DNA of 58,584 bases from an uncultured Bacteroidales bacterium (GTDB lineage Bacteria; Bacteroidota; Bacteroidia; Bacteroidales; PUMT01): the NCBI GenBank assembly GCA_964520585.1, contig CAZFOO010000012.1, forward strand, positions 1 through 58,584, given 5' to 3'. This document shows positions 4,142-30,010 of this stretch, one piece after another. Every line of letters starts with the position of its first letter. Positions within the stretch are counted from its first letter, which is position 1. Under the pieces are notes generated by a model. The model was not told the origin of the DNA. It saw only the letters and a program-made list of their open reading frames with translations, and did no database searches. The position numbers and the translations under genes are program-made.

Positions 4142-5596
4142 TTGTCATCTCTAAAACAAAAAACAATTTCGGGACTTGCCTGGAGTTTTATCGATATTTT
4201 CTCTAATAAAGGTATTAGTTTTGTTTTTGGTATAATTTTAGCCAGACTTCTTACACCCCGGGAGTTTGGTCTGGTGGGAATGGTTAGCATTTTTATCGCA
4301 ATTTCAAAATCTTTAATGGATAGTGGCTTTTCAAGTGCTTTAATAAGAAAGAAAGACTGTACCCAAACTGATTACTCCACCGTCTTTATATTTAATACTT
4401 TATCCAGTATTTTTCTTTACTTAATTTTATATTTATCGGCAAATGCAATAGGTGAATTTTTCGATGAACCCCAACTTGAGCTCATTCTGCAGGTTTTAGG
4501 AATAGGATTAATAATAAATTCTTTCTCTATTATACAGAGGGCTATCTTAACTAAAAGAATAGATTTTAAACTACAAACCAAAATATCACTTCTTGGCTCA
4601 TTAATAGCTGGAAGTATTGGAATATTTCTGGCATATAGTGGATACGGAGTGTGGAGTCTGGTCTATATGTCTTTGGCAGGTTTTTTTGTTTCAACCGTTT
4701 TATTATGGTTATGGAATCAGTGGAGGCCTTCACTGATATTCAGCACAGATTCATTCAGGGAACTGTTTTCTTTTGGTTCTAAACTTATGTTAAGCAGTAT
4801 ACTTAACACCGTATATAAAAATATTTATAATCTTGTAATTGCAAAGTATTACACTGCTGCAGATTTGGGATTCTATACCCGGGCTAATCAGTTTAAGGAA
4901 TTCCCTGCTGAAAAATTAACTTCAATTATTCAGAGAGTTAGCTATCCTGTTCTTTCCTCTGTACTTGATGATATCGCCCGGTTACGTTACTACTATCAAA
5001 AATTAATTAAAAGCACAATGCTGATAAGTTTTGTTCTTATGATGGGCCTGGCTGCGACTGCTGAACCCTTAATTATTACTCTTATAGGCGAAAAATGGCT
5101 CCCATCTGTTATGTATTTACAATTGCTTTGTTTTGTTGGTATGCTTTATCCTTTACATGCAATTAATCTTAATATGTTAAAAGTTTTAGGCAGGTCAGGC
5201 CATTACTTAAAGCTCGAAGTAATTAAGAAGTTTATTGCCATCCCTATTATACTTACAGGAATTTTCATTGGTATTTTCGAAATGTTATTAGGAATGATTA
5301 TCACTTCCTTTATAAATTATTTTTTGAATTCATATCTTTCCGGAAAATTAATCAGCTACTCAAGCTGGAAACAGTTAAAAGACATTTTTCCCTCCTTTAT
5401 GCTGGCACTGATAATGGGAGGTATTCTGCTATCAATCAACATGTTTTTTGAAATTAACAGCTTCCTCATTCTAATGATACAAGTTATAACCGGAATCGTT
5501 ATTATTATAGGAGTCTCTGAAATATTTAGATTAGAAAGTTATATAGAGATTAAAGCAATAGTTATTGATAAAATAAAGCGTAATGGATCTTTATAA
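4142..5596 (+). CDS. wzx: Wzx flippase (WzxC-like)
   Basis: SLKQKTISGLAWS...ILARLLTPREFGLVGM; multi-TM; TTG start. Confidence 0.9.
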   Translation: MSSLKQKTISGLAWSFIDIFSNKGISFVFGIILARLLTPREFGLVGMVSIFIAISKSLMDSGFSSALIRKKDCTQTDYSTVFIFNTLSSIFLYLILYLSANAIGEFFDEPQLELILQVLGIGLIINSFSIIQRAILTKRIDFKLQTKISLLGSLIAGSIGIFLAYSGYGVWSLVYMSLAGFFVSTVLLWLWNQWRPSLIFSTDSFRELFSFGSKLMLSSILNTVYKNIYNLVIAKYYTAADLGFYTRANQFKEFPAEKLTSIIQRVSYPVLSSVLDDIARLRYYYQKLIKSTMLISFVLMMGLAATAEPLIITLIGEKWLPSVMYLQLLCFVGMLYPLHAINLNMLKVLGRSGHYLKLEVIKKFIAIPIILTGIFIGIFEMLLGMIITSFINYFLNSYLSGKLISYSSWKQLKDIFPSFMLALIMGGILLSINMFFEINSFLILMIQVITGIVIIIGVSEIFRLESYIEIKAIVIDKIKRNGSL

Positions 5597-7031
5597 CCCT
5601 GATTGGAACAAAAACCTTGCGAATTTTTTATTTCTTAAAAGTGCATTCTGTACTTCTAATAAGTTCATTAAAACTGAAGAAGTAATTGACTGGTTAAAGG
5701 AACAAAATGATAAAGTGAAGGTTAAGGTTATAAGGACTTCTTTTAGTAAATTAAAAGACTGGAGTTATGAAGGTGTTAGTGGTTCAATCAGACATAAAAC
5801 AGGAAAATTTTTCAGCATAGATGGGATCCGCGTAGATACCAACTGGGGAAATGTAAGTAATTGGGAGCAGCCAATTATCAATCAACCTGAGGTAGGTTAT
5901 CTTGGATTTATAACAAAAGAATTTGACGGAGTATTATATTTTCTTACCCAGGCAAAAATTGAGCCGGGAAATGTAAATTATGTTCAGTTATCTCCAACGC
6001 TACAAGCAACCCGGAGTAATTATACACAAGTTCATAGCGGAAGCAGGCCACAATATCTTGAATATTTTGTAAAAGCAAAGCCAGAGCAAATTCTTTTAGA
6101 TCAACTTCAATCAGAACAAGGCGGGAGGTTTTTAAAGAAAAGGAACCGGAACATAATCATTAAAATTGAGGATGATATACCGGTATATGATAACTTCACT
6201 TGGCTTACACTAGCTCAGATTAAGAAGTTGATGCAGAAGGACAATCTTGTGAATATGGATACGCGGACTGTCGTTTCAGGCATACCATACGGTAGTTTTA
6301 ACGATAATGTCATAGATTTCTTTAATTTTTTGGCAGAAGAAACTTCAGGAAATCAAATATCAAAAGCCTTATTTAAATCCGTACTATCGCAAGAGGGTGC
6401 CTATAACAGCATTGAAGATATAATGTCCTTTATGACCCACCTGAAAAGCATTTTTGATTTGGATGTTAGAAACAAACCATTGGAAGGATTAACACAATGG
6501 ATTTTTGATGATGAAGGAATTTATCATCTCGAAAATAAGTACTTTAAAGTTATACCTGTTGATGTCGAAATTGGTAACAGAGAAATTGTAAAATGGTGCC
6601 AGCCAATGGTAGAGCCTGCGCAGGAAGGATTATGTGCATTTGTTTGTAAAGAAATTAATAATGTGCTGCACTTTATAGTTCAGGCAAAACTTGAAGCCGG
6701 AAATTTCGATATTATTGAATTTGCGCCGACAATTCAGTGTCTGACAGGGAATTATCGACAAACAAAACATGGCGCACTTCCCTTTCTTGATTATGTATTG
6801 AATGCCCGAAAGGAACAGATTGTATATAATTCATTACAGTCCGAAGAGGGTGGCAGGTTTTATAAAGAACAAAACAGAAATATGATTATTTTATCTGACG
6901 ATGAAATTGGCACAGAGTTACCCCCAAACTATATATGGATGACCCTGAATCAGTTACATACCTTTCTTAAATTTAACAACTATTTAAATGTGCAGGCACG
7001 AAGCTTAATTGCTGCTATATCATACATTTAA
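5583..7031 (+). CDS. NDP-hexose 2,3-dehydratase (EvaA/OleV family)
   Basis: Internally duplicated domain: WEQPII/WCQPMV, QAKIEPGN/QAKLEAGN, LSPTLQ/FAPTIQ, QSEQGGRF/QSEEGGRFY. Confidence 0.9.
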   Translation: MDLYNPDWNKNLANFLFLKSAFCTSNKFIKTEEVIDWLKEQNDKVKVKVIRTSFSKLKDWSYEGVSGSIRHKTGKFFSIDGIRVDTNWGNVSNWEQPIINQPEVGYLGFITKEFDGVLYFLTQAKIEPGNVNYVQLSPTLQATRSNYTQVHSGSRPQYLEYFVKAKPEQILLDQLQSEQGGRFLKKRNRNIIIKIEDDIPVYDNFTWLTLAQIKKLMQKDNLVNMDTRTVVSGIPYGSFNDNVIDFFNFLAEETSGNQISKALFKSVLSQEGAYNSIEDIMSFMTHLKSIFDLDVRNKPLEGLTQWIFDDEGIYHLENKYFKVIPVDVEIGNREIVKWCQPMVEPAQEGLCAFVCKEINNVLHFIVQAKLEAGNFDIIEFAPTIQCLTGNYRQTKHGALPFLDYVLNARKEQIVYNSLQSEEGGRFYKEQNRNMIILSDDEIGTELPPNYIWMTLNQLHTFLKFNNYLNVQARSLIAAISYI

Positions 7032-8251: not shown

Positions 8252-9235
8252 ATGAAAGAAGTTATAAATATTGGTATAATTGGCATCGCTAACATTGCTT
8301 TGCGCTCGGTAATTCCTTCCATTATAGATTTAGGTGAGTATTTCAGGTTATATGGACTAGCAAGCAGAAACGCTGAAAAAGCAAAAGACACCTGTAGATT
8401 ATTTAACACAAAGGCATATCAGGATTATGATGAACTAATTAATGATGATAATCTGGATGCTGTATATATTCCTTTGCCAAATGCCCTCCATGCATCCTGG
8501 ATAGAAAAATCCTTACAAAAAGGATTGCATGTTTTAGTAGAAAAATCACTTGCATGCAATTTGGAAGATGCACTATATTTGAATAATCTGGCCAGGGAAA
8601 AATCACTCGTATTATTGGAAAATTTTCAGTTTCAATTTCATAGCCAACTCTATTATATTAAAGAATTGTTGCAGGAAAATAAAATTGGCGGTTTAAGATG
8701 CATTAGAAGTGCATTTGGATTTCCCCCATTTCCTGATAAGAATAATATCAGGTATAAAAAGGAACTTGGTGGTGGGGCATTGCTGGATGCTGGAGCATAT
8801 CCGGTTAAAATTTCTCAGGTTTTTCTTGGGAATGACCTGGATGTTGAATCAGGTAATCTATTTTATGATGAAAATTTAAATGTTGATATCTGGGGAGGCG
8901 GTTGTCTGAAACAAAAAAACGGATCATTATTTTCCCAAGTAGCATTTGGGTTTGACAATTTTTATCAGTGTAATATTGAATTGTGGGGAAGTAAGGGCAG
9001 AATTTCTACAAATAGAATATTTACTGCTCCCCCTGATTTTGAGCCTGTTATTAAATTAGAAACGGGATATGGGAAGGAAATCATAAAATTGCCCCCGGAT
9101 AATCATTTTATAAAGATGTTAATGCATTTTTATGATTTGATCACACTCCAGAAAAATACAGAACAGGAGTATTTACAAAACATAAATCAGGCCCGGCTTA
9201 TATCTGAACTTAAAACAAAATCAAATGGGCAGTAA
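8252..9235 (+). CDS. Gfo/Idh/MocA oxidoreductase, probable NDP-3,4-diketo-2,6-dideoxyhexose 3-reductase (OleW/KijD10-like)
   Basis: GIIGIANIA, AVYIPLPNALH, HVLVEKS, NIRYKKELGGGALLDAGAYP; near the 2,3-dehydratase. Confidence 0.8.
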   Translation: MKEVINIGIIGIANIALRSVIPSIIDLGEYFRLYGLASRNAEKAKDTCRLFNTKAYQDYDELINDDNLDAVYIPLPNALHASWIEKSLQKGLHVLVEKSLACNLEDALYLNNLAREKSLVLLENFQFQFHSQLYYIKELLQENKIGGLRCIRSAFGFPPFPDKNNIRYKKELGGGALLDAGAYPVKISQVFLGNDLDVESGNLFYDENLNVDIWGGGCLKQKNGSLFSQVAFGFDNFYQCNIELWGSKGRISTNRIFTAPPDFEPVIKLETGYGKEIIKLPPDNHFIKMLMHFYDLITLQKNTEQEYLQNINQARLISELKTKSNGQ

Positions 9236-10310
9236 ACCAATATATGTTACTCAGCCATCTCTTGCTCCACTGGATGAATATGTAGAATTATTAAAGGGTG
9301 TATGGAAACGTGGGATCCTGACTCATAACGGCCCCCTTGTTCAACAGTTTGAAAAGGAGATTGCTTCAAAATTAAAGTTGTCTAATTTCGTCGCAGTCGC
9401 CAATGGAACTATAGCAATCCAGATGGCAATTAAAGCCCTGGAACTTCAGGGAGAAATAATTACTACACCTTTTACATGGATAGCAACAATTAGTGCAATA
9501 AAATGGGAAGGTTGCACACCTGTTTTTTGCGATATAGATCCTGAAACCTTAAATATAGATCCAACCAAAATAGAGTCTCTTATAACTAAGAAGACCGTTG
9601 CGATTATGCCTGTGCATGTTTTTGGCAATCCATGTGATGTTGATGCTATAGATATTATTGCCAAAAAGCATAATCTCAAAGTTATTTATGATGGTGCTCA
9701 TGCTATTGGTTCTAAGTATAAAGAAAAAAGTCTTTTGGAATATGGCGATATAACAGCAACCAGTTTACATGCTACTAAGTTATTGAATACTGCTGAAGGA
9801 GGAGGTTGCATTACAAAAAACCCGGAGCTTTATGAGAAACTTAAGAGAATTAGATTTTTTGGACATAATGAAGAGAAAGATATCGTTGAAGATGGGTTTA
9901 ATGGCAAAATGACAGAAATCCATGCAGCATTGGGTATCGCAAATTTAAAATATTATGATTCTGTTTTAATGGATCGTGAAATTAAGTACAATAAGTATCA
10001 GGAGGGTTTATCAGAATTAGAATTTCTTAAATTTCAAAGTGTTCCTCAGGGAACTTCTAATTATTCATATTTCCCGGTTATTTTTGATACCGAAGACAGA
10101 TTATTAAAAACGCTGAAACTTTTAAATGATCATCAAATTTACCCAAGGAGGTATTTTTACCCTTCGGTAAATACATTTACCAATATTTTGGATTTTCAGG
10201 AATGTCCAGTTTCGGAAGATATTTCAAAAAGAATTTTGTGTTTACCATTGTATTTAAGTTTGGTCAATGACGAAATGAATAAAATAATCAAGATAATAAA
10301 TCAAAATTAG
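9225..10310 (+). CDS. DegT/DnrJ/EryC1/StrS PLP aminotransferase, VioA-like sugar 4-aminotransferase
   Basis: IYVTQPSL, LTHNGPLVQQFE, IYDGAHA, SLHATKLLNTAEGG, RRYFYPS. Confidence 0.85.
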   Translation: MGSKPIYVTQPSLAPLDEYVELLKGVWKRGILTHNGPLVQQFEKEIASKLKLSNFVAVANGTIAIQMAIKALELQGEIITTPFTWIATISAIKWEGCTPVFCDIDPETLNIDPTKIESLITKKTVAIMPVHVFGNPCDVDAIDIIAKKHNLKVIYDGAHAIGSKYKEKSLLEYGDITATSLHATKLLNTAEGGGCITKNPELYEKLKRIRFFGHNEEKDIVEDGFNGKMTEIHAALGIANLKYYDSVLMDREIKYNKYQEGLSELEFLKFQSVPQGTSNYSYFPVIFDTEDRLLKTLKLLNDHQIYPRRYFYPSVNTFTNILDFQECPVSEDISKRILCLPLYLSLVNDEMNKIIKIINQN

Positions 10311-10343
10311 TTAATAAACAATATTTTAATTTTAAAAAAACTA

Positions 10344-10808
10344 ATGGAACCCTCAAAACTTGGTCATTATTATGAAGAGTTTGTTGTTAACGAAACTATC
10401 GAGCATTCACTTTCAAAAACTATTTTCGAAAGTGACAATAATATGTTTTCACTTCTGACAATGAATCATCATCCTGTTCACATTAATACTGATTATGCTA
10501 TAAACAATCAACATGGCAAGTTGTTGGTTGTCGGCACGTTAGTGTTTTCACTTGTTGTTGGAATTACAGTACCTGATATCAGCGGTAAGGCAATTGCTAA
10601 TTTAGGTTATGAAACCATTGATCACCTTGCTCCAGTCTTTATTGGTGATACAATTTATGCTAAAACAAAGATTTTATCAAAAAAAGCATCTTCATCAAAA
10701 CATGACAGGGGCATTATTCATGTTGAAACCATTGGGTATAATCAAAATAATGAGGATGTTATTAAATTTAAGCGTTCAGTTTTATTAAAAAAACAAAATT
10801 TTATCTGA
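10344..10808 (+). CDS. MaoC-family (R)-specific enoyl-CoA hydratase/dehydratase
   Basis: GHYYEEF, DNNMFSLLTMNHHPVH catalytic-type segment, PVFIGDTI. Confidence 0.85.
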   Translation: MEPSKLGHYYEEFVVNETIEHSLSKTIFESDNNMFSLLTMNHHPVHINTDYAINNQHGKLLVVGTLVFSLVVGITVPDISGKAIANLGYETIDHLAPVFIGDTIYAKTKILSKKASSSKHDRGIIHVETIGYNQNNEDVIKFKRSVLLKKQNFI

Positions 10809-10809
10809 T

Positions 10810-11700
10810 ATGAGCCAAAATTTATTTCGCAGTTTAATGTTTGTCCCTGCACACAATAAAAAACTTATGGATAGTGCAGCAAAATCCAATGCCGACGTTC
10901 TGCTTCTAGATATTGAAGATTCTGTTCAACCAAAGGATAATAAACAAATTGCCAGAAATACGATTATTGATTACGTTAAAAAGGGCAAATTTATAAACCA
11001 TTGTCTTTATCCACGTATCAACGACAGTGAAAGCGGAGAGTTATTAAAGGATTTGACGCAATTAACTATAGAAGGTATTGATGGATTTATGTATCCAAAA
11101 TCATATAAAGGAGATGACATATATTTTATTGACAAATTGCTTGAGACTATAGAATATGAAAGAGGGTTTGAAAAAGGCAGATTTAAGCTTATACCATTAA
11201 TCGAAACCTCTGCTGCTGTACTGAATGCGCAAGACATAATCAAAGCTAGTAAACGCGTTGTTGCTATTGCGTTTGGTTGTGAAGATTTTATTACAGATTT
11301 GCAGGGGGTGCATGATCATGAAGGTCAGAGTATTTTTACTCCAAGAGCATTGATTGCTCTTGCCGCCAGAGCAAATCAGGTTATCCCTGTGGATACAGTA
11401 CATATTAATGTTCATGATATGGAAGATCTGGAACGTAATCTGATTATTGCAAAAAACCTTGGTTTTGAAGGTATGCTTGTGCTAAATCCAAAAGAAATTC
11501 CTTTGGTACATAAATATTTTTCTCCTTCATTAAAGGAATATGATTCTTCTCTTGAAATGCTGAAACTTGCTGCAGAAGCTGAAAAGGAAGGGAAAGGTGT
11601 AGCAGTCATGAACAACAGATTTATTGGACCGCCTATGGTAGTAACAGCTAAAAGAATTATTGGAAGGTATGAAATGATTCAAAATAAAACAGTTCTCTGA
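10810..11700 (+). CDS. CitE/HpcH-family CoA-ester lyase (malyl-/citramalyl-/citryl-CoA lyase-like)
   Basis: RSLMFVPA, LLDIEDSV, PRIN, LIET, FGCEDF, LGFEGM, FSPS. Confidence 0.85.
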   Translation: MSQNLFRSLMFVPAHNKKLMDSAAKSNADVLLLDIEDSVQPKDNKQIARNTIIDYVKKGKFINHCLYPRINDSESGELLKDLTQLTIEGIDGFMYPKSYKGDDIYFIDKLLETIEYERGFEKGRFKLIPLIETSAAVLNAQDIIKASKRVVAIAFGCEDFITDLQGVHDHEGQSIFTPRALIALAARANQVIPVDTVHINVHDMEDLERNLIIAKNLGFEGMLVLNPKEIPLVHKYFSPSLKEYDSSLEMLKLAAEAEKEGKGVAVMNNRFIGPPMVVTAKRIIGRYEMIQNKTVL

Positions 11701-11702
11701 AA

Positions 11703-12362
11703 ATGAAAAAGCTTGTTATCTTAGGAGGCAGGGGTATAGGAATGATTGCTGCTTCAGTTGCAAATGATTTGGGTACATATGAAATTATGGGGTTTTTAAA
11801 TGATTTTTTGCCTGTCGGTGAAAAAATAGGAAAATACAGGAGCTATAAAATTATTGGCAAGTCATTAGATGTTTCTAACTATTTGGAAGACGAAAATGTT
11901 TATTTTTTTATCGGTTATGTAGGAATGAAAAATGAAAAAGAAGTATATGAAAAAATCACTTCATTAAATATTCCCCGCAACCGTTATGCAACTTTAATTC
12001 ACCCTACAGCAATAATCCCAAAGGGCTTTTGTTGTATTGGAAATGGCGTTTTGATGGCACCCCTGTCACAATTATCTCCGGATACTACTGTTGAAGATAA
12101 TTGTATTTTATTGCCAAATTCTTTCCTGGGTCATGATAGCACGATGAGAAGGTTTTCACATATTACCTCAAATAGTGTAGTTGGCGGGAATGTCATTATC
12201 GGGAAAGGTGTGCACATAGGCACTAATGCAACAATACGTGAAGATGTAACTGTTGGTGATTTTTCTCTCATTGGCTCAGGTTCTGTTGTACTTAAAGATG
12301 TTCCTGGTAATTCAATTGTTGTTGGAAACCCGGCAAGGATACTAAAATCAAAAAATGAATGA
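11703..12362 (+). CDS. NeuD/PglD/VioB-family sugar N-acyltransferase (left-handed beta-helix)
   Basis: LVILGGRG Rossmann-like start, ATLIHPTA, GHD, hexapeptide repeats, VVGNPARIL. Confidence 0.85.
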   Translation: MKKLVILGGRGIGMIAASVANDLGTYEIMGFLNDFLPVGEKIGKYRSYKIIGKSLDVSNYLEDENVYFFIGYVGMKNEKEVYEKITSLNIPRNRYATLIHPTAIIPKGFCCIGNGVLMAPLSQLSPDTTVEDNCILLPNSFLGHDSTMRRFSHITSNSVVGGNVIIGKGVHIGTNATIREDVTVGDFSLIGSGSVVLKDVPGNSIVVGNPARILKSKNE

Positions 12363-13345
12363 GTATTCCTCTGGTTTCTGTCTGCTGCATTACCTATAAT
12401 CATGAAAATTATATCGGCGATGCAGTTGAAGGATTCTTAAGCCAACGGACCACCTTTCCTGTTGAGGTTATTATCCATGATGATGCTTCAACTGACAGGA
12501 CAGCCGGTATTATTAAAAAATATGCTAATCGGTATCCTGAAATAGTTATACCAATACTTCAGGAAGTAAATCAATATTCAAAGGGCATAAAGCCATCAAC
12601 AACTTATGTTTGGCCCCGGGCTAAGGGTAAATATATCGCTTTATGTGAAGGTGATGATTTTTGGACTGATCCTTTAAAACTGCAGAAACAGGTTGACTTT
12701 TTGGAAAATAATAAAGATTTTGTTTTATCCTTTCATAATACCATTGGCATAAACGAAGATAAAGGATATCCGGAACAAATAAAAATGGTAAATCAGTTGT
12801 TACAATTACCTCCGGAAAAAGTGCCGGTTGAGCATCGTACTCATACATGCTCTTTATTTTTTCGCAATATTATCAAGGATTTTCCAAAGGAATACTTCGA
12901 AGTTGTCAACAGTGATACTTTTTTAATTTTTTTATTATCACGACATGGAAAACGTATATATCAGAATGATATCTACCCATCGGTAAGGAGATATCATAAA
13001 ACTTCGGTCTGGGCATCAAAAGGTTTAGAGTACAAGAAAAAACAAAAAATAAACACCTATTCCAAGATGCTTGAGATAGCAATTAATGATGATGAGCGTA
13101 ATCGGATCAAGGTAAATATTATTAAAGAGCATATTCAGATTTTTCAACATCAGTTTTCCAGATTCAAGATAAGATCTGGGTTTAAGAACCTGTTTGTAAC
13201 TTTAAAGATCGCAATCAAACAAAAAAACCTGCTCTTGTTTTGTTTATATGGTTTGCCCGGGTTGTACTACCTGTCAAGAATACCATATAAGGTATACGCA
13301 AAACTGAAATACTATATGAGTAATTCATTGACTATCAAATCCTGA
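12359..13345 (+). CDS. GT2 glycosyltransferase
   Basis: VSVCCITYNHENYI, HDDASTD, ALCEGDDFWTDPLKLQKQV. Confidence 0.9.
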   Translation: MSIPLVSVCCITYNHENYIGDAVEGFLSQRTTFPVEVIIHDDASTDRTAGIIKKYANRYPEIVIPILQEVNQYSKGIKPSTTYVWPRAKGKYIALCEGDDFWTDPLKLQKQVDFLENNKDFVLSFHNTIGINEDKGYPEQIKMVNQLLQLPPEKVPVEHRTHTCSLFFRNIIKDFPKEYFEVVNSDTFLIFLLSRHGKRIYQNDIYPSVRRYHKTSVWASKGLEYKKKQKINTYSKMLEIAINDDERNRIKVNIIKEHIQIFQHQFSRFKIRSGFKNLFVTLKIAIKQKNLLLFCLYGLPGLYYLSRIPYKVYAKLKYYMSNSLTIKS

Positions 13346-14591: not shown

Positions 14592-16310
14592 ATGATAGAA
14601 AGTTTTTTAATATTTAGTAAATCATACAGGTTTTTATGGTTTTTTTTAATTGCAACCTTTTTGGCAACTAATATTTCTGGTAATGATGTTCCTGCTTTCC
14701 CTGGTGCAGAAGGATTTGGGAAATACTCAAAAGGAGGAAGGGGAGGGGTAGTTTTACAAGTAACTAATGTGAATGACAACGGACCAGGTAGTTTACGGGA
14801 AGCTTTGGAATATGAAGGGCCTCGTATAATTGTCTTTTCTGTAAGCGGAGTTATTAGTTTGAAGGAACCCATTTTTATTGATAACCCTTTTGTAACGCTG
14901 CTTGGGCATACTGCTCCTGAAAAAGGTGTTGCTATTCGGGGTAATCAGTTACATATACGCACTCATGATGTTATAATAAGATTCTTGAGAATGCGTATCG
15001 GAGATGTGAATTTTGGTAAGCTTAACCATTGGCAATCATTAGATGCAATAGATATTGGTAATGGTAAAAGCGATGATGTTCATAATATTATTATTGATCA
15101 CTGTTCTATAAGTTGGGCTACAGATGAAAATATTGGTTTATGGGGTGACTCCTATAATATTACAATTCAAAACAGCATTATTAGTGAAGGCTTAAACTTT
15201 GGTAAAAATATTCAAAAAAGAGGAATGGGTATACTGGTTGGTCCTTGGGCTGAAAGGATTTCCATTCTGAATAATCTTTTTATTCATAATGGTAAAAGAA
15301 ATCCAAGAATGGGCAATGGGGGATTAGGGGATGTCAGAAATAATACAATATATAATCCTGGCTGGATGGGAATAAATATTTGGAATGAAAAAACAGATAA
15401 ACCACAAACTCTTAATATAGTTAAGAACATTTTTATACCTGGTCCTGATACAGAATTTGAAAAAGAAATAAGTATATGGGATCCTACTACACATCCTGGG
15501 AAGGTTTATATTGCTGATAACCTCGGATTTTCAGGTGATACTAATTATGATAACTGGGTAATGGTAGAAGATGCTAATTCCCCTAGGGATCCTATCACTC
15601 CGGAACAAATTGAAAGAGTTAAATCCGACGAGGAGTTTCTTAATGAGGTTTCTAAAACTAAATCATTTGAAGAAATGAATCATTATGTTCAATATTATGT
15701 AGGTGCAAGTTTGCCTTTAAGGGATGAAGTTGATGTAAGACTTATCAATGAGTGGAAATCAGGAAAAGGGAAATTAATAAAATCACAAGATGAAGTTGGT
15801 GGTTGGCCTGTATATAGTGCCGGTATTAAGAGGGTTACCTTGTTTGGTGAAGGGAATGGGGATGACATTATTCCTTTGGGATGGAGAGAAAAGTATAATA
15901 TTTGGCGTGGAGACGAAAATGAAGATTTCAATGGTAACGGATATACTAATATTGAGGAGTTTTTTAATGGTACTAATCCCTTGAGCCAGGAAGAACCTTC
16001 CATAATGCAAATATTTGAAGGCTTTGGAGCTATAGTTGAGGAAAAAAGAAGTGTAGAATTAGAACAAAATTTCCCTAATCCTTTTCGCGATTATACTAAT
16101 ATTAGATTCTCTATACAAAAACATGTTTTTGTATTATTTAATATTTACGACTATACAGGTATAAAGGTTGATGAATTGGTTGATGCAGAACTTTACCCCG
16201 GCCGATATGAAATCCTTTGGAAACCCTCAAAAGGACTTCCTCCAGGGATTTATTTAGGATATATGGTTATAGGTAATGAAAAATTAAGTATTAAAATGAT
16301 GATGAATTAA
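14592..16310 (+). CDS. PL1 pectate-lyase-like protein with T9SS type A sorting domain
   Basis: PAFPGAEGFG..GGRGG..VTN..D.GPGSLR, IIDHCSISWATDE, RNPR; C-terminal LEQNFPNPF...IYD..G...PPGIY...K.M. Confidence 0.85.
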   Translation: MIESFLIFSKSYRFLWFFLIATFLATNISGNDVPAFPGAEGFGKYSKGGRGGVVLQVTNVNDNGPGSLREALEYEGPRIIVFSVSGVISLKEPIFIDNPFVTLLGHTAPEKGVAIRGNQLHIRTHDVIIRFLRMRIGDVNFGKLNHWQSLDAIDIGNGKSDDVHNIIIDHCSISWATDENIGLWGDSYNITIQNSIISEGLNFGKNIQKRGMGILVGPWAERISILNNLFIHNGKRNPRMGNGGLGDVRNNTIYNPGWMGINIWNEKTDKPQTLNIVKNIFIPGPDTEFEKEISIWDPTTHPGKVYIADNLGFSGDTNYDNWVMVEDANSPRDPITPEQIERVKSDEEFLNEVSKTKSFEEMNHYVQYYVGASLPLRDEVDVRLINEWKSGKGKLIKSQDEVGGWPVYSAGIKRVTLFGEGNGDDIIPLGWREKYNIWRGDENEDFNGNGYTNIEEFFNGTNPLSQEEPSIMQIFEGFGAIVEEKRSVELEQNFPNPFRDYTNIRFSIQKHVFVLFNIYDYTGIKVDELVDAELYPGRYEILWKPSKGLPPGIYLGYMVIGNEKLSIKMMMN

Positions 16311-25604: not shown

Positions 25605-27470
25605 ATGAAAAAATTATTAATTGTAATCAGAACGGTCTTCCGGTTAGGATTATGGAATGTAGCCTATGTTTTTTTGTACAGGGTTGCACTAAAAACTGGA
25701 ATAATAAGATACAAATTTCCGGTTAAACAATTAATTTCCACCGAGAATTTTTATGGTTCATATGAAACGACAGGAGCATATCCTGATGAGTGGAAGCAAT
25801 ATCTGTTAAATGATGCAGACCATATCTTATCAGGCTTTTTAAAATATTATTCCTTTCACTGGAAGAAGGTCGGCAATCCTCCTGACTGGTTCTTTAATCC
25901 TTTTTCCGGTACTCACTATCCTGATAATCATCTTCACTGGACTAAACTAAGCGATTTTCACCAGGAGGCGGGAGATATTAAAAATATATGGGAAGCTTCG
26001 AGATTTGAATGGCTTGTAAAACTTGCCAGAGCTTATGCAGTTACAGGCAAAATTGATTATCTGGATGGTATAAACACCCGGATAAACGATTGGGTTTTAA
26101 AAAACCCTGTCAATACAGGCCCAAACTGGAAGTGTGGGCAAGAGGTGGCTTTTCGTGTGTTTAACTTATTAATTGCGGCATATATACTTAAGAATCATCT
26201 TAATCCTGCAAGTGTATTATCAGATCTGATCTATGCTCACCTGGAGAGGATCAATAATAATATCGGTTATGGTTTAGCCCAGGATAACAATCATGGCATA
26301 AGTGAGTCAGCAGGGTTATTTGTTGGTGGCAGCTGGCTTATGATGCTTAATGATGAAAAGTATCTGCTTTCAAAAAGTTATTCCGAAAAAGGCAGGAGAA
26401 TTCTTGAAAAGCAGGTTGAAAAACTTATAGCTCCTGATGGTAGTTTTTCGCAGCATTCTACAAATTATCACCGTGTAGTACTCGATACTATCTCATATGC
26501 TGAGTTCTGGCGAATAACTACCAGGCAGGAACCTTTTTGCGAAATATTTTATTCAAGGGTCAGGGCTGCAATTGATTGGCTATTCGATATAACTGACTCC
26601 AGCAATGGTAATGTGCCAAATTTCGGTGCAAATGATGGGGCTATGATAAATCAACTGCATTCATGCTCATACCGCGATTTCAGGCCTTCTTTGCAATTAT
26701 CCGGTGCCCTTTTCTTTAAAAATAACTTATATGAAAATGGGAAATGGGATGAACCACTCAAGTGGTTGGATTTAACAGAAATATTTAAAAAGCAAGATAG
26801 CCTTGTAAAGAAAAACAAAATACTCAACACAGGGTATCTTTTTCTTCATAGCAGTGATGCCTTAGTCTTTTTAAGACTGCCATATTTTAGGTTCAGGCCT
26901 GCTCATAATGATGTATTTCATTTTGACCTGTGGCATAAAGGAGTTAATATATTGTGTGATGCAGGGACATATTCCTATAATCCTCCGCCTGATGAAGAAG
27001 TGAATTTGAAATCGGTTAATCATCACAACACAGTTTGTTTTGATGGAAATGAACAAATGCCTCAATTAAGCAGGTTTTTACTCGGTAACTGGCTAAGGGT
27101 TGATCATATCGGAAACATACAGGAGGATTCCGCCGGTTTAACAGAATGGACCGGGTCGTATTATGACAATAATAGAAATCGTCATCAGAGAAAAATAACC
27201 TCCGGAAACAATCTGTGGATTATAGAAGATACTCTTGAAGGAAACTTTGCTAATGCCAGAATAGGTTTTAATATCAATTATCAGAAAGTAATTTTAGCAG
27301 GGCGCGAAGTATTTTTCCCTGGTGGTAAATTAACATTTGATGCAAAAGTTACTGCTACTCTCACAGATTCCCCTGTTTCAGAGTACTATTTTGAAAAACA
27401 TTTAGTAAAAAGATTAATAATGGAGGTTGATAAACCAGGCATATATAAGACAGTGCTGTCTTTCAACTAA
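25605..27470 (+). CDS. heparinase II/III-family protein, WeeF-like
   Basis: GDIKNIWEASRF, GPNWKCGQE, QDNNHGISE, FSQHSTNYHR, RPAHND, DAGTYSYN, HNTV. Confidence 0.8.
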   Translation: MKKLLIVIRTVFRLGLWNVAYVFLYRVALKTGIIRYKFPVKQLISTENFYGSYETTGAYPDEWKQYLLNDADHILSGFLKYYSFHWKKVGNPPDWFFNPFSGTHYPDNHLHWTKLSDFHQEAGDIKNIWEASRFEWLVKLARAYAVTGKIDYLDGINTRINDWVLKNPVNTGPNWKCGQEVAFRVFNLLIAAYILKNHLNPASVLSDLIYAHLERINNNIGYGLAQDNNHGISESAGLFVGGSWLMMLNDEKYLLSKSYSEKGRRILEKQVEKLIAPDGSFSQHSTNYHRVVLDTISYAEFWRITTRQEPFCEIFYSRVRAAIDWLFDITDSSNGNVPNFGANDGAMINQLHSCSYRDFRPSLQLSGALFFKNNLYENGKWDEPLKWLDLTEIFKKQDSLVKKNKILNTGYLFLHSSDALVFLRLPYFRFRPAHNDVFHFDLWHKGVNILCDAGTYSYNPPPDEEVNLKSVNHHNTVCFDGNEQMPQLSRFLLGNWLRVDHIGNIQEDSAGLTEWTGSYYDNNRNRHQRKITSGNNLWIIEDTLEGNFANARIGFNINYQKVILAGREVFFPGGKLTFDAKVTATLTDSPVSEYYFEKHLVKRLIMEVDKPGIYKTVLSFN

Positions 27471-28799: not shown

Positions 28800-29411
28800 A
28801 TGACAATTTATTCCAGGTTTTTTAAAATAATTTTTGACTTTTTGGTCAGTATCTTCTTGTTGATACTTTTAACTCCTATTATTCTGGTAGTTACTATATG
28901 GTTATTTCTGGTTAATGGAGGGAAGCCTTTTTTTTATCAGTTAAGGCCAGGTAAAAACGCCCGCATCTTTAAGCTGATCAAGTTTAAAACAATGACCGAC
29001 AAAACAGATAGTCATGGTAATTTGCTGACTGATTCTGAAAGACTCACTTCACCGGGTCGTTTAATTCGTAATTTATCTTTAGATGAACTTCCTCAATTAT
29101 TAAACGTAGTTAAAGGCGATATGAGTCTTGTTGGGCCGCGACCTTTACTAATAGAATATTTGCCATTATATAATGACAGGCATAAACGCAGGCATGAAGT
29201 TAAACCTGGAATAACAGGATGGGCCCAGGTTAACGGACGGAATGCAATTAGCTGGGAAGAAAAGTTTGATTTTGATATATGGTATGTAGATAATATATCA
29301 TTTTTAATAGATCTTAAAATACTCTGGATCACTTTTTTAAAAGTATTAAAAAAGGAAGGGATTAATCAGAAAACTGACATTCCTATGGAAAAATTTAAAG
29401 GAAGTGAATAA
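28800..29411 (+). CDS. pglC: initiating phosphoglycosyltransferase (PglC-like)
   Basis: KFKTM, SLDELPQLLNVVKGDMSLVGPRP, PGITGWAQVNGRN; ATG 28800 preferred to TTG 28770. Confidence 0.85.
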   Translation: MTIYSRFFKIIFDFLVSIFLLILLTPIILVVTIWLFLVNGGKPFFYQLRPGKNARIFKLIKFKTMTDKTDSHGNLLTDSERLTSPGRLIRNLSLDELPQLLNVVKGDMSLVGPRPLLIEYLPLYNDRHKRRHEVKPGITGWAQVNGRNAISWEEKFDFDIWYVDNISFLIDLKILWITFLKVLKKEGINQKTDIPMEKFKGSE

Positions 29412-30010
29412 TGTATTTATATGGTGCAAGCGGTCATGCTAAAGTAATTATTGAAATTCTTGAACAGAACATGGTTACTGTTGACGGACTTTACGATGAC
29501 AATCCTGATATAAAACAATTACTTGGTTATAGGGTTTATGGTTCTTTGTCTAGTAAAAGGATTCCTAAAGTTCCATTTATTGTTTCAATTGGCAATAATT
29601 CATTGCGAAAGAAAATAGTAGAGGAGTACAATCTTTTATTTGGAAATGCATTTCACCTGACATCCGTAATTTCAAAACGGACCAAAATCGATGAAGGTTC
29701 GGTTGTTCTTGGAAACGTAGTAATTAACTCTGGTGCTCTGATAGGCAAACATGTTATATTAAACACTTTATGCAGTATTGACCATGATTGTGTTATTGGC
29801 GATTATGTTCATATTTCACCCAATGCATGTTTAAGTGGAGGCGTTAGTATAGGAGAAGGGACTCATATTGGTTCAGGATCTGTTATAATTCCCGGTATTT
29901 CCATTGGAAAATGGGTTACTATAGGTGCAGGCTCTGTAATCATAAGCGATGTGCCTGATTATGCTACGGTAGTAGGAAATCCTGGGAATGTAATTAAAAT
30001 GTCGAAGTGA
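29411..30010 (+). CDS. pglD: UDP-4-amino-sugar N-acetyltransferase (PglD-like)
   Basis: YGASGHAKV, IGNNSLR, IDHDC, hexapeptide repeats, VVGNP. Confidence 0.8.
   Translation: MYLYGASGHAKVIIEILEQNMVTVDGLYDDNPDIKQLLGYRVYGSLSSKRIPKVPFIVSIGNNSLRKKIVEEYNLLFGNAFHLTSVISKRTKIDEGSVVLGNVVINSGALIGKHVILNTLCSIDHDCVIGDYVHISPNACLSGGVSIGEGTHIGSGSVIIPGISIGKWVTIGAGSVIISDVPDYATVVGNPGNVIKMSK

Follow-up and report, generated by a model that had tools for sequence, protein, structure and literature searches.

A MaoC/CitE-like gene pair that recurs in bacterial glycan loci and its probable part in unusual N-acylation of amino sugars

In this article, I discuss three neighbouring genes from the polysaccharide locus of an uncultured Bacteroidales bacterium (GTDB lineage PUMT01; GenBank assembly GCA_964520585.1, contig CAZFOO010000012.1), which encode a MaoC-type hydratase, a CitE-like coenzyme A (CoA) ester enzyme and a left-handed beta-helix (LbH) sugar N-acyltransferase, and which most likely make an unusual acidic acyl group that is placed on an amino sugar instead of acetyl. 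The whole stretch of DNA that was analysed, 58,584 nucleotides (nt) from a 4.3 Mb genome that is 97.8% complete, is referred to as the window, and its polysaccharide locus is a single run of genes on the + strand from 364 to about 39600 (~40 kb). The three genes (Table 1) sit inside a tight gene run that spans 8252 to 13345: gaps of 1 nt and 2 nt separate their open reading frames (ORFs), 33 nt lie between the end of the DegT aminotransferase ORF and the MaoC ORF, the acyltransferase ORF overlaps the following GT2 glycosyltransferase gene by 4 nt and, upstream, the Gfo/Idh/MocA gene overlaps the aminotransferase gene by 11 nt. The ORF coordinates and Pfam matches bear out the original prediction, made from the letters of the DNA, that three genes 1-2 nt apart directly follow a sugar aminotransferase, and the separate PglD acetyltransferase that it placed at 29411 is equally real; since this second PglD-type gene is present, ordinary acetylation is covered separately. 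Elsewhere the locus holds export genes (a Wza-like exporter, Wzz and Wzx), many GT2 and GT4 genes, and a block made up of a PglB-type phosphoglycosyl transferase, PglD, a PglE-like aminotransferase and a PglF-like dehydratase. The G+C content is 0.32-0.37 across 4-30 kb of the window versus 0.40-0.51 beyond, and a low G+C stretch is common for variable glycan loci.

Table 1. The three cassette genes, their neighbours and other genes of the window that are discussed in the text (aa, amino acids; NDP, nucleoside diphosphate).
Feature	Positions	Strand	Evidence
Single-domain MaoC (hot-dog) enoyl-CoA hydratase/dehydratase, 154 aa	10344..10808	+	Pfam MaoC_dehydratas E 1e-15, MC_hydratase E 1.2e-17
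CitE-like CoA-ester enzyme, TIM barrel + swapped lid, 296 aa	10810..11700	+	Pfam HpcH_HpaI E 1.5e-40
NeuD/PglB/VioB-type LbH sugar N-acyltransferase, 219 aa	11703..12362	+	Pfam Hexapep + PglD_N
NDP-hexose 2,3-dehydratase	5583..7031	+	Pfam Hexose_dehydrat E 3.5e-150
Gfo/Idh/MocA oxidoreductase	8252..9235	+	Pfam GFO_IDH_MocA E 2.7e-22 plus C-terminal domain
DegT/DnrJ/EryC1 sugar aminotransferase	9225..10310	+	Pfam E 3e-89
GT2 glycosyltransferase	12359..13345	+	Pfam Glycos_transf_2 E 1.5e-22
Second, PglD-type N-acetyltransferase	29411..30010	+	Pfam PglD_N E 8.8e-16 and Hexapep
Carboxypeptidase-like lipoprotein, 360 aa	7093..8175	+	Lipoprotein-like N-terminus (Cys after hydrophobic stretch), weak Peptidase_M14 match E 1.7e-07
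PelZ-like pectate lyase	14592..16310	+	NCBIfam 198 bits, cut-off 840
Fusion of zinc-type alcohol dehydrogenase domain and Gfo/Idh/MocA oxidoreductase, 722 aa	23338..25506	+	
Heparinase II/III-like gene	25605..27470		
Fkp-like salvage enzyme, 961 aa	31432..34317	+	Fucose pyrophosphorylase + GHMP kinase domains

The three-gene arrangement is not due to chance, as 71 of 83 loci have MaoC immediately upstream of the CitE orthologue. These loci comprise that of the window, those of three genomes from its order and 79 taken from the 80 best hits (L045 has no intact CitE ORF and was left out) among 299 relatives that turned up when 185,579 species were scanned, each represented by one genome; neighbouring genes were taken as the longest non-overlapping ORFs of at least 80 aa and then clustered. 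The orthologues in the 80 best hits are 63-72% identical to the CitE-like protein of the window and come from Bacteroidota, Cloacimonadota, Ignavibacteria, Delongbacteria, Desulfobacterales and Treponemataceae, and further from Aminicenantes, Calditrichota, Balneolaceae, Opitutales and Tissierellia, among others; cultured strains that carry it are Algoriphagus marincola DSM 16067, A. formosus, Salegentibacter salarius DSM 23401, Parafilimonas terrae DSM 28286 and Lishizhenia tianjinensis. Yet among 60 related genomes the orthologue is found in none of the 19 from the same family (completeness 74-99%), while three genomes from other families of the order carry it at 65-69% identity, with MaoC beside or near it, an LbH gene close by and glycan genes as neighbours; other matches in these 60 genomes are about 27-32% identical, and the eight inspected are ordinary CitE-like proteins that keep the aspartate discussed below. 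In the window's own genome this is the sole CitE/HpcH-family gene (the only other HpcH_HpaI match is a pyruvate kinase) and the MaoC gene is the only close copy. The pair is accessory, its distribution is patchy and strain-level like that of other glycan cassettes, and I regard it as a real, conserved and horizontally mobile cassette of glycan loci.

MaoC occurs in 74 of the 83 loci, a PglD-type LbH gene in 60 (immediately downstream, at +1, in 25), DegT in 47, and an N-acyltransferase of either the LbH or the AAC(3)-like type lies no more than six genes away in 67 (66 plus L056, where the LbH gene was clustered differently); when the count is confined to the 57 loci with at least four genes on each side, MaoC is found in 51, a transferase in 51 and DegT in 35. 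According to Pfam, the recurrent neighbours include enzymes of nucleotide-sugar synthesis (RmlA, an RmlB-like dehydratase, the FdtA ketoisomerase, a PseB-like dehydratase and uridine diphosphate-glucose dehydrogenase), of nonulosonic acid synthesis (a cytidylyltransferase and NeuB) and of glycosyl transfer and export (GT2, GT4, Wzx, phosphoglycosyl transferase and GtrA), and also an ATP-grasp ligase, WbqC, LPG_synthase_TM, PGA_cap, a LUD domain and PaaK-like CoA ligases. The cassette has entered at least three sugar routes, namely the FdtA/RmlA/RmlB route to deoxythymidine diphosphate (dTDP)-3-amino sugars, a pseudaminic/legionaminic-type route and the 2,3-dehydratase route of the window; the nonulosonic loci of Algoriphagus (L065 and L076) read PseB-like dehydratase, DegT, cytidylyltransferase, CitE paralogue, MaoC, CitE, LbH, a weak GT-B hit and NeuB. 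The original prediction of a dedicated acyl module of glycan loci had staked itself on the homologues being linked to sugar genes, and across the 83 loci that linkage is what was found. Two unrelated folds of acyl-CoA-dependent transferase, LbH and AAC(3)-like, come after the pair, and whereas the MaoC orthologues are 56-76% identical to that of the window (mean 68%, n=73), the values for the LbH proteins linked to the pair are 24-71% (mean 35%, n=59); a pair that is better conserved than its transferase, and a transferase that can be replaced by another fold, fit a constant acyl-CoA supply that serves many sugar-specific transferases.

Some of these loci have features of their own. Where LbH is absent, a transferase of the AAC(3)/Antibiotic_NAT family follows or neighbours the pair (L023:10899-11816, L029:7149-8114, L046, L086 and L102), and I know of no role described for it at such loci. 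In L073 (10895-12184), L014 (8570-9832) and about eight more loci, mostly from Cloacimonadota, CitE is directly followed by one or two adenylate-forming CoA ligases of the PaaK-like type; an AlaDH/PNT-N-like gene, PGA_cap, LPG_synthase_TM, GT2 and LbH often accompany them, and MaoC is sometimes absent. In L042 and L055 the pair lies between a DapD-like tetrahydrodipicolinate N-succinyltransferase gene of divergent orientation and the gene for an M48 peptidase, with GT4 and 3-deoxy-D-manno-octulosonic acid (Kdo) transferase genes nearby.

What, then, could the two enzymes of the pair do? The MaoC ORF falls well within the MaoC/hydratase-2 family (PF01575, 57.9 bits against a cut-off of 27); its best NCBIfam model is RipB/Ich (NF038241) with 132.2 bits, under the cut-off of 340, followed by the 2-methylfumaryl-CoA hydratase model with 59.7 bits, and among solved structures the mesaconyl/beta-methylmalyl-CoA enzymes 4e3e and 8hgn match it best. 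The top-scoring families all act on dicarboxylic acyl-CoAs, and by sequence the protein appears to belong to the branch of RipB/Ich and mesaconyl-CoA hydratase. At least 97% of 74 orthologues keep the motif N41-x-x-P44-x-H46; its Asn stands at the Asp position of the classical hydratase-2 motif, and the same pattern of Asn and His aligns in the second domain of 4e3e. The CitE-like protein is likewise a plain member of its superfamily by domain (PF03328, 139 bits against a cut-off of 25), and its AlphaFold model (predicted local distance difference test, pLDDT, 95.2; predicted template modelling score, pTM, 0.91) finds its best structural matches among malyl-CoA lyases, CLYBL, the Mycobacterium tuberculosis CitE and (S)-citramalyl-CoA lyase, with template modelling (TM) scores of 0.73-0.89 and, in Foldseek, of 0.87-0.89 to 4l9y and 5vxc. 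Its residues D34, E36, D37, R69, E132 and D159 are each kept in 83/83 clade members and align to counterparts in 1sgj and 5ugr, which would make E132 and D159 the Mg ligands, R69 the substrate Arg and D34/E36/D37 the water-binding residues, with roles as described in the relevant passages of PMC3832036 (Zarzycki and Kerfeld). A Glu precedes the Mg-binding Asp; ordinary CitE proteins have it too, and it is uninformative on substrate specificity.

The third enzyme, presumed to be the user of the pair's acyl-CoA, scores 159.5 bits on the NeuD/PglB/VioB model TIGR03570, just under the cut-off of 160.8, and has VioB (7txp, E 1.9e-22) as its best solved relative; its His144, the presumed catalytic base, aligns with the His of VioB, PglB-ATD and PglD sequences, and at least 90% of 60 LbH relatives linked to the cassette retain it. 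As to the sugar, RmlA and RmlB were found on other contigs of the genome, dTDP-4-keto-6-deoxyglucose is therefore available as the substrate of the 2,3-dehydratase, this enzyme would be the first to commit it to the deoxy-amino sugar that is the probable acceptor, and the Gfo/Idh/MocA oxidoreductase can be inferred from its gene position to be the sugar 3-ketoreductase, for which KijD10-type enzymes presumably provide a precedent. Because the aminotransferase is DesI-like, as a 4-aminotransferase would be (best NCBIfam model PLP_DesI, 254 bits, below the cut-off of 650), and the transferase is VioB-like, the acceptor in the window is most likely dTDP-4-amino-2,4,6-trideoxyhexose, made by way of the 2,3-dehydratase, the ketoreductase and the aminotransferase. 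The GT2 enzyme encoded next is a candidate transferase for the acylated sugar, and GT2 is the commonest downstream neighbour family of the related loci (21 loci).

The best explanation of the whole, to which, taken jointly, I would give a probability of roughly 0.6, is that the MaoC/CitE-like pair is a portable module supplying a non-acetyl acyl-CoA, with which the adjacent LbH enzyme acylates a nucleotide-linked amino sugar. What is seen directly is how the genes are ordered, which families they belong to, how well the cassette is conserved and that N-acyltransferase and amino-sugar genes accompany it; the reaction direction, the substrates, the acyl group and the acceptor I infer. In this proposal the pair would make or tailor the acyl-CoA, most likely by the chemistry of the RipC/RipB (Ccl/Ich) pair of itaconate degradation run in reverse: the CitE-like enzyme would join an acetyl-type CoA thioester and pyruvate to citramalyl-CoA, MaoC would interconvert citramalyl-CoA with itaconyl- or mesaconyl-CoA, and irreversible amide formation by the transferase would pull on the sequence, giving an anionic C5-dicarboxylic N-acyl sugar. 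No isocitrate lyase turned up in the window's genome or in four of five other carrier genomes, the fifth giving a partial 45-bit match only; glyoxylate from isocitrate lyase would thus not generally be at hand, pyruvate (possibly oxaloacetate) is accordingly the likelier carbonyl partner, and with pyruvate a C5 acyl group (citramalyl, itaconyl or mesaconyl) is favoured over malyl or fumaryl. The dicarboxylic acyl donor that the original prediction had called for thus keeps its support from the MaoC protein, which scores best on hydratases of dicarboxylic acyl-CoAs, while the malyl/fumaryl version of it has become less likely. A 3-hydroxybutanoyl product was considered and set aside, as MaoC alone could make it and CitE-type enzymes, in the passages cited from PMC3832036, need a carbonyl partner that bears a carboxylate. 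That the reversed sequence can work is suggested by PMC11367265, a passage of which describes reversed citramalyl-CoA lyase and itaconyl-CoA hydratase yielding itaconyl-CoA in vivo when an irreversible step pulls.

Several points weigh against this proposal, whose support comes throughout from gene context and homology. The context counts describe the 80 most similar of 299 relatives and depend on my own ORF calling; L042 and L055 adjoin housekeeping and lipopolysaccharide-core genes, not a typical glycan locus; and MaoC is absent from the full-flank loci L047, L062, L063, L069, L073 and L088, where PaaK-like CoA ligases or a second CitE paralogue stand instead in some cases, so that the pair is not the only architecture. 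In six of the 57 full-flank loci there is no transferase within six genes, and this speaks for a different account in which the LbH enzyme is a plain N-acetyltransferase while the pair works at some other stage of glycan synthesis, for instance in the supply or removal of a 2-oxo acid (pyruvate or glyoxylate) for pyruvyl or carboxyethyl decoration, or in the salvage of CoA esters. The closest solved relatives of the LbH enzyme, VioB and PglD, are indeed acetyltransferases, a pyruvyl-transferase fusion adjoins the pair in L051 (a locus with no transferase within five genes) and an AlaDH/PNT-N-like gene is present in some loci. However, pyruvate and acetyl-CoA are central metabolites for which dedicated supply is unneeded, a separate PglD is already encoded in the window, and an acyl-CoA-dependent transferase of one fold or the other follows the pair far more often than any other family does, and I regard this account as unlikely.

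By sequence the cassette fits no curated equivalog family: the MaoC and the CitE-like proteins both lie under every curated cut-off, which makes the transfer of substrates by homology weak, and the CitE-like protein scores higher on the model of true citrate lyase beta (citE, TIGR01588, 190.6 bits, cut-off 443.4) than on RipC/Ccl (NF038242, 105.4 bits, cut-off 375), its second-best model, with malyl-CoA lyase at 46.6 bits (cut-off 500). No CitD or CitF family was seen by Pfam among the window proteins, the rest of the genome not having been searched for them. Moreover, citramalyl-CoA synthesis from pyruvate by malyl-CoA lyase was seen only at high pyruvate excess in the passages of PMC3832036 that deal with it. 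One could also imagine that the module is catabolic or detoxifying, acts on itaconate or citramalate as RipB/RipC do, and sits in this locus by accident, given that RipB/Ich is the top NCBIfam match of MaoC, that RipC ranks second for CitE and that the hydratase-then-lyase gene order is that of rip operons. I consider this very improbable: both scores are far under their equivalog cut-offs (132 vs 340 and 105 vs 375), neither a RipA-type CoA transferase nor any other CoA transferase or ligase was found in the window by Pfam and the single family-III (CoA_transf_3) gene of the genome is on another contig (C38), the CitE-like protein lacks the catalytic Asp, the link to glycan genes holds across the 83 loci, and the patchy strain-level distribution is that of other glycan cassettes. 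The itaconate pair of Yersinia and Pseudomonas, to be named together with M. tuberculosis Rv2498c, is nonetheless among the nearest known parallels, with the same two families encoded by adjacent genes and with solved citramalyl-CoA lyases (8khl and 6aq4) that match the CitE model at TM 0.73-0.77; it differs in that here the scores are below the cut-offs, there is no CoA transferase partner, Gly stands for the lid Asp, and the pair lies in glycan loci beside an N-acyltransferase and presumably runs in the synthetic as opposed to the degradative direction.

A further point that weighs on the chemistry is this lid Asp, a defining feature of CitE-like lyases that the protein lacks by sequence. 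According to the passages of PMC3832036 cited here, the residue (Asp299 and Asp318 in the malyl-CoA lyases MCL-R and MCL-C) follows the lid beta-hairpin, is conserved throughout the superfamily and the malate synthases with, as the sole exception noted, a malyl-CoA thioesterase cluster that has Glu, and is the proposed proton abstractor/donor at the alpha-carbon of the thioester; an Asp-to-Asn mutant of malate synthase G is inactive. Gly273 takes its place in 83/83 clade members: pairwise alignments set FIGPP of the window against MVDEP (1sgj), MVDAP (8khl and 9nzb), MVDSP (6aq4) and LIDIA (5ugr), the Escherichia coli CitE has MVDGP, and in the AlphaFold model residue 273 directly follows the hairpin of lid strands 265-267 and 270-272, where Asp318 stands in the Chloroflexus lyase. 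With this Asp absent from the clade, a simple reversible lyase becomes doubtful. In sum, the original prediction was right in outline, and the HpcH_HpaI family and fold agree with the CitE-type lyase that it proposed, whereas its premise of reversible condensation is weakened by the missing Asp and by scores below all CitE, RipC and malyl-CoA lyase cut-offs.

The substitution marks more than one clade. A large Gly-type subfamily of CitE-like proteins exists, to which the window protein belongs by sequence: in 132 full-length representatives of the 150 best clusters at 50% identity, the lid position is Asp in 66, Gly, Ser or Ala in 60 (42, 9 and 9), Glu in three, Thr in one and a gap in two, with the Gly/Ser/Ala type extending to 30% identity; at 90% identity, 4585 clusters reach E 1e-30, and in databases the Gly-type members go under no more than general names (CoA ester lyase, or HpcH/HpaI aldolase/citrate lyase family). 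A scan of metagenomes for distant Gly-type relatives is informative only for L100-L103 and L107, as one of its two patterns was generic and retrieved mostly housekeeping CitE-like proteins of the Asp type. A further change is E229, which takes the place of the HPxQ Gln in 83/83 clade members. It was considered as a stand-in for the lost Asp and rejected in that general role, as only 17 of the 60 Gly/Ser/Ala-type representatives carry Glu there, leaving the whole subfamily unexplained. In 20 loci (e.g., L015:8117-8947, L044, L053, L065, L076 and L087) the pair is accompanied, directly upstream of MaoC or CitE, by another CitE paralogue that is 22-27% identical; the window is without one. The lid position of this paralogue is Glu in 16/20, the state of the malyl-CoA thioesterase cluster, and Thr in 4/20.

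These data raise the question of whether the donor role is right and the chemistry of the CitE-like enzyme is another one that dispenses with the base Asp, for example the condensation of malonyl-CoA (or methylmalonyl-CoA) with a 2-oxo acid under decarboxylation, in which the departing CO2 would yield both the enolate and the thermodynamic drive, or else the isomerisation of a dicarboxylic acyl-CoA or a shift of CoA within it. Gly273 is invariant while the Mg ligands, Arg69 and D34/E36/D37 are all intact, the model sets it in the place of Asp318, the Gly/Ser/Ala state characterizes nearly half of the representatives, Glu at the HPxQ Gln occurs in 17/60 of these and in 0/66 of the Asp type, and the distant Gly-type genes in L100, L101 and L102 (40-43% identity) once more have MaoC and LbH, a CitE paralogue or an AAC(3)-like gene for neighbours. 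On the other hand, a site for the malonyl carboxylate is not evident in the sequence, I know of no precedent for a decarboxylating CitE-like enzyme, and E229 or an invariant His (168, 198 or 234) could serve as the base and leave an ordinary lyase, which makes this chemistry improbable overall, with malonyl-CoA decarboxylation as the source of the enolate being speculative. The bolder version is improbable in the same degree: Gly-type ("GPP") CitE-like proteins may form a distinct, undescribed class of glycan-decoration enzymes that synthesize hydroxy-dicarboxylic acyl-CoAs irreversibly, e.g., from malonyl-CoA and pyruvate with decarboxylation, and that together with MaoC lead to citramalyl, itaconyl or mesaconyl N-acyl groups. 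Were it true, many phyla would carry unrecognised anionic or Michael-acceptor N-acyl groups on 3-amino sugars, 4-amino sugars and nonulosonic acids.

Other known systems help to place the proposed donor module. The anthrose pathway of Bacillus uses the hydratase AntA, the aminotransferase AntC and the beta-helix N-acyltransferase AntD, where AntA is a crotonase-type hydratase that acts on an existing catabolic intermediate. The likeness is that genes for a CoA-ester hydratase, a sugar aminotransferase and an LbH N-acyltransferase are adjacent (9225-12362 here) and that the logic is shared, with a non-acetyl acyl group going onto a 4-amino-6-deoxy sugar; AntD has been linked to 3-hydroxy-3-methylbutyryl-CoA in a passage of PMC8141488. 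The difference is that here a MaoC-type hydratase is teamed with a C-C enzyme, a pairing that points to a dicarboxylic acyl chain assembled from scratch, and because the hydratase families differ, the likeness is a functional analogy and not homology. The malyl-CoA/beta-methylmalyl-CoA/citramalyl-CoA lyases and the mesaconyl-CoA hydratase of the 3-hydroxypropionate bi-cycle and the ethylmalonyl-CoA pathway are the best structural matches of the two proteins: the lyases 4l9y and 5ugr match the CitE model at TM 0.85-0.87 and have the Mg, Arg and lid architecture in common with it, but keep the lid Asp (Asp299/Asp318) and carry insertions specific to malyl-CoA lyases, and mesaconyl-CoA hydratase is a fused double MaoC protein of ~350 aa versus the single 154-aa domain here. 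VioA/VioB and PglE/PglD share the architecture of an aminotransferase with an LbH enzyme of the NeuD/PglD family, but use acetyl-CoA and have no dedicated acyl-CoA enzymes alongside. Finally, hydroxy-dicarboxylic N-acyl groups do exist on bacterial amino sugars, N-malyl amino sugars being known from the O-antigens of Pseudoalteromonas rubra, Vibrio vulnificus and Shewanella algae, of which that of V. vulnificus is a 4-malyl amide, C4-linked as malyl-CoA would give it; the passages of PMC3210612 that report them assign no gene.

Other genes of the window deserve mention in their own right (Table 1). The carboxypeptidase-like lipoprotein is oddly placed between the genes for the sugar 2,3-dehydratase and the ketoreductase, and the PelZ-like pectate lyase, whose C-terminal stretch resembles a type IX secretion sorting tail, is encoded amid biosynthetic genes. 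A heparinase II/III-like gene, the dehydrogenase/oxidoreductase fusion and the Fkp-like salvage enzyme lie in the same glycan locus.

N-acyl groups set the charge, the antigenicity and the phage recognition of surface glycans, while the genes that supply the acyl donors are unknown for most non-acetyl groups (malyl and the like). In the full-text literature, no paper linking MaoC/CitE-like enzymes with glycans was found among the matches listed, and a paper on the O-antigen cluster of Tenacibaculum maritimum mentions neither citrate lyase, MaoC, HpcH nor hydroxyglutarate. The cassette described here is abundant, crosses phylum boundaries and enters at least three amino-sugar pathways including the pseudaminic/legionaminic type, and the identity of its product would let many glycan loci be read from sequence, while the Gly-type enzyme would show what the CitE fold does without its canonical base.

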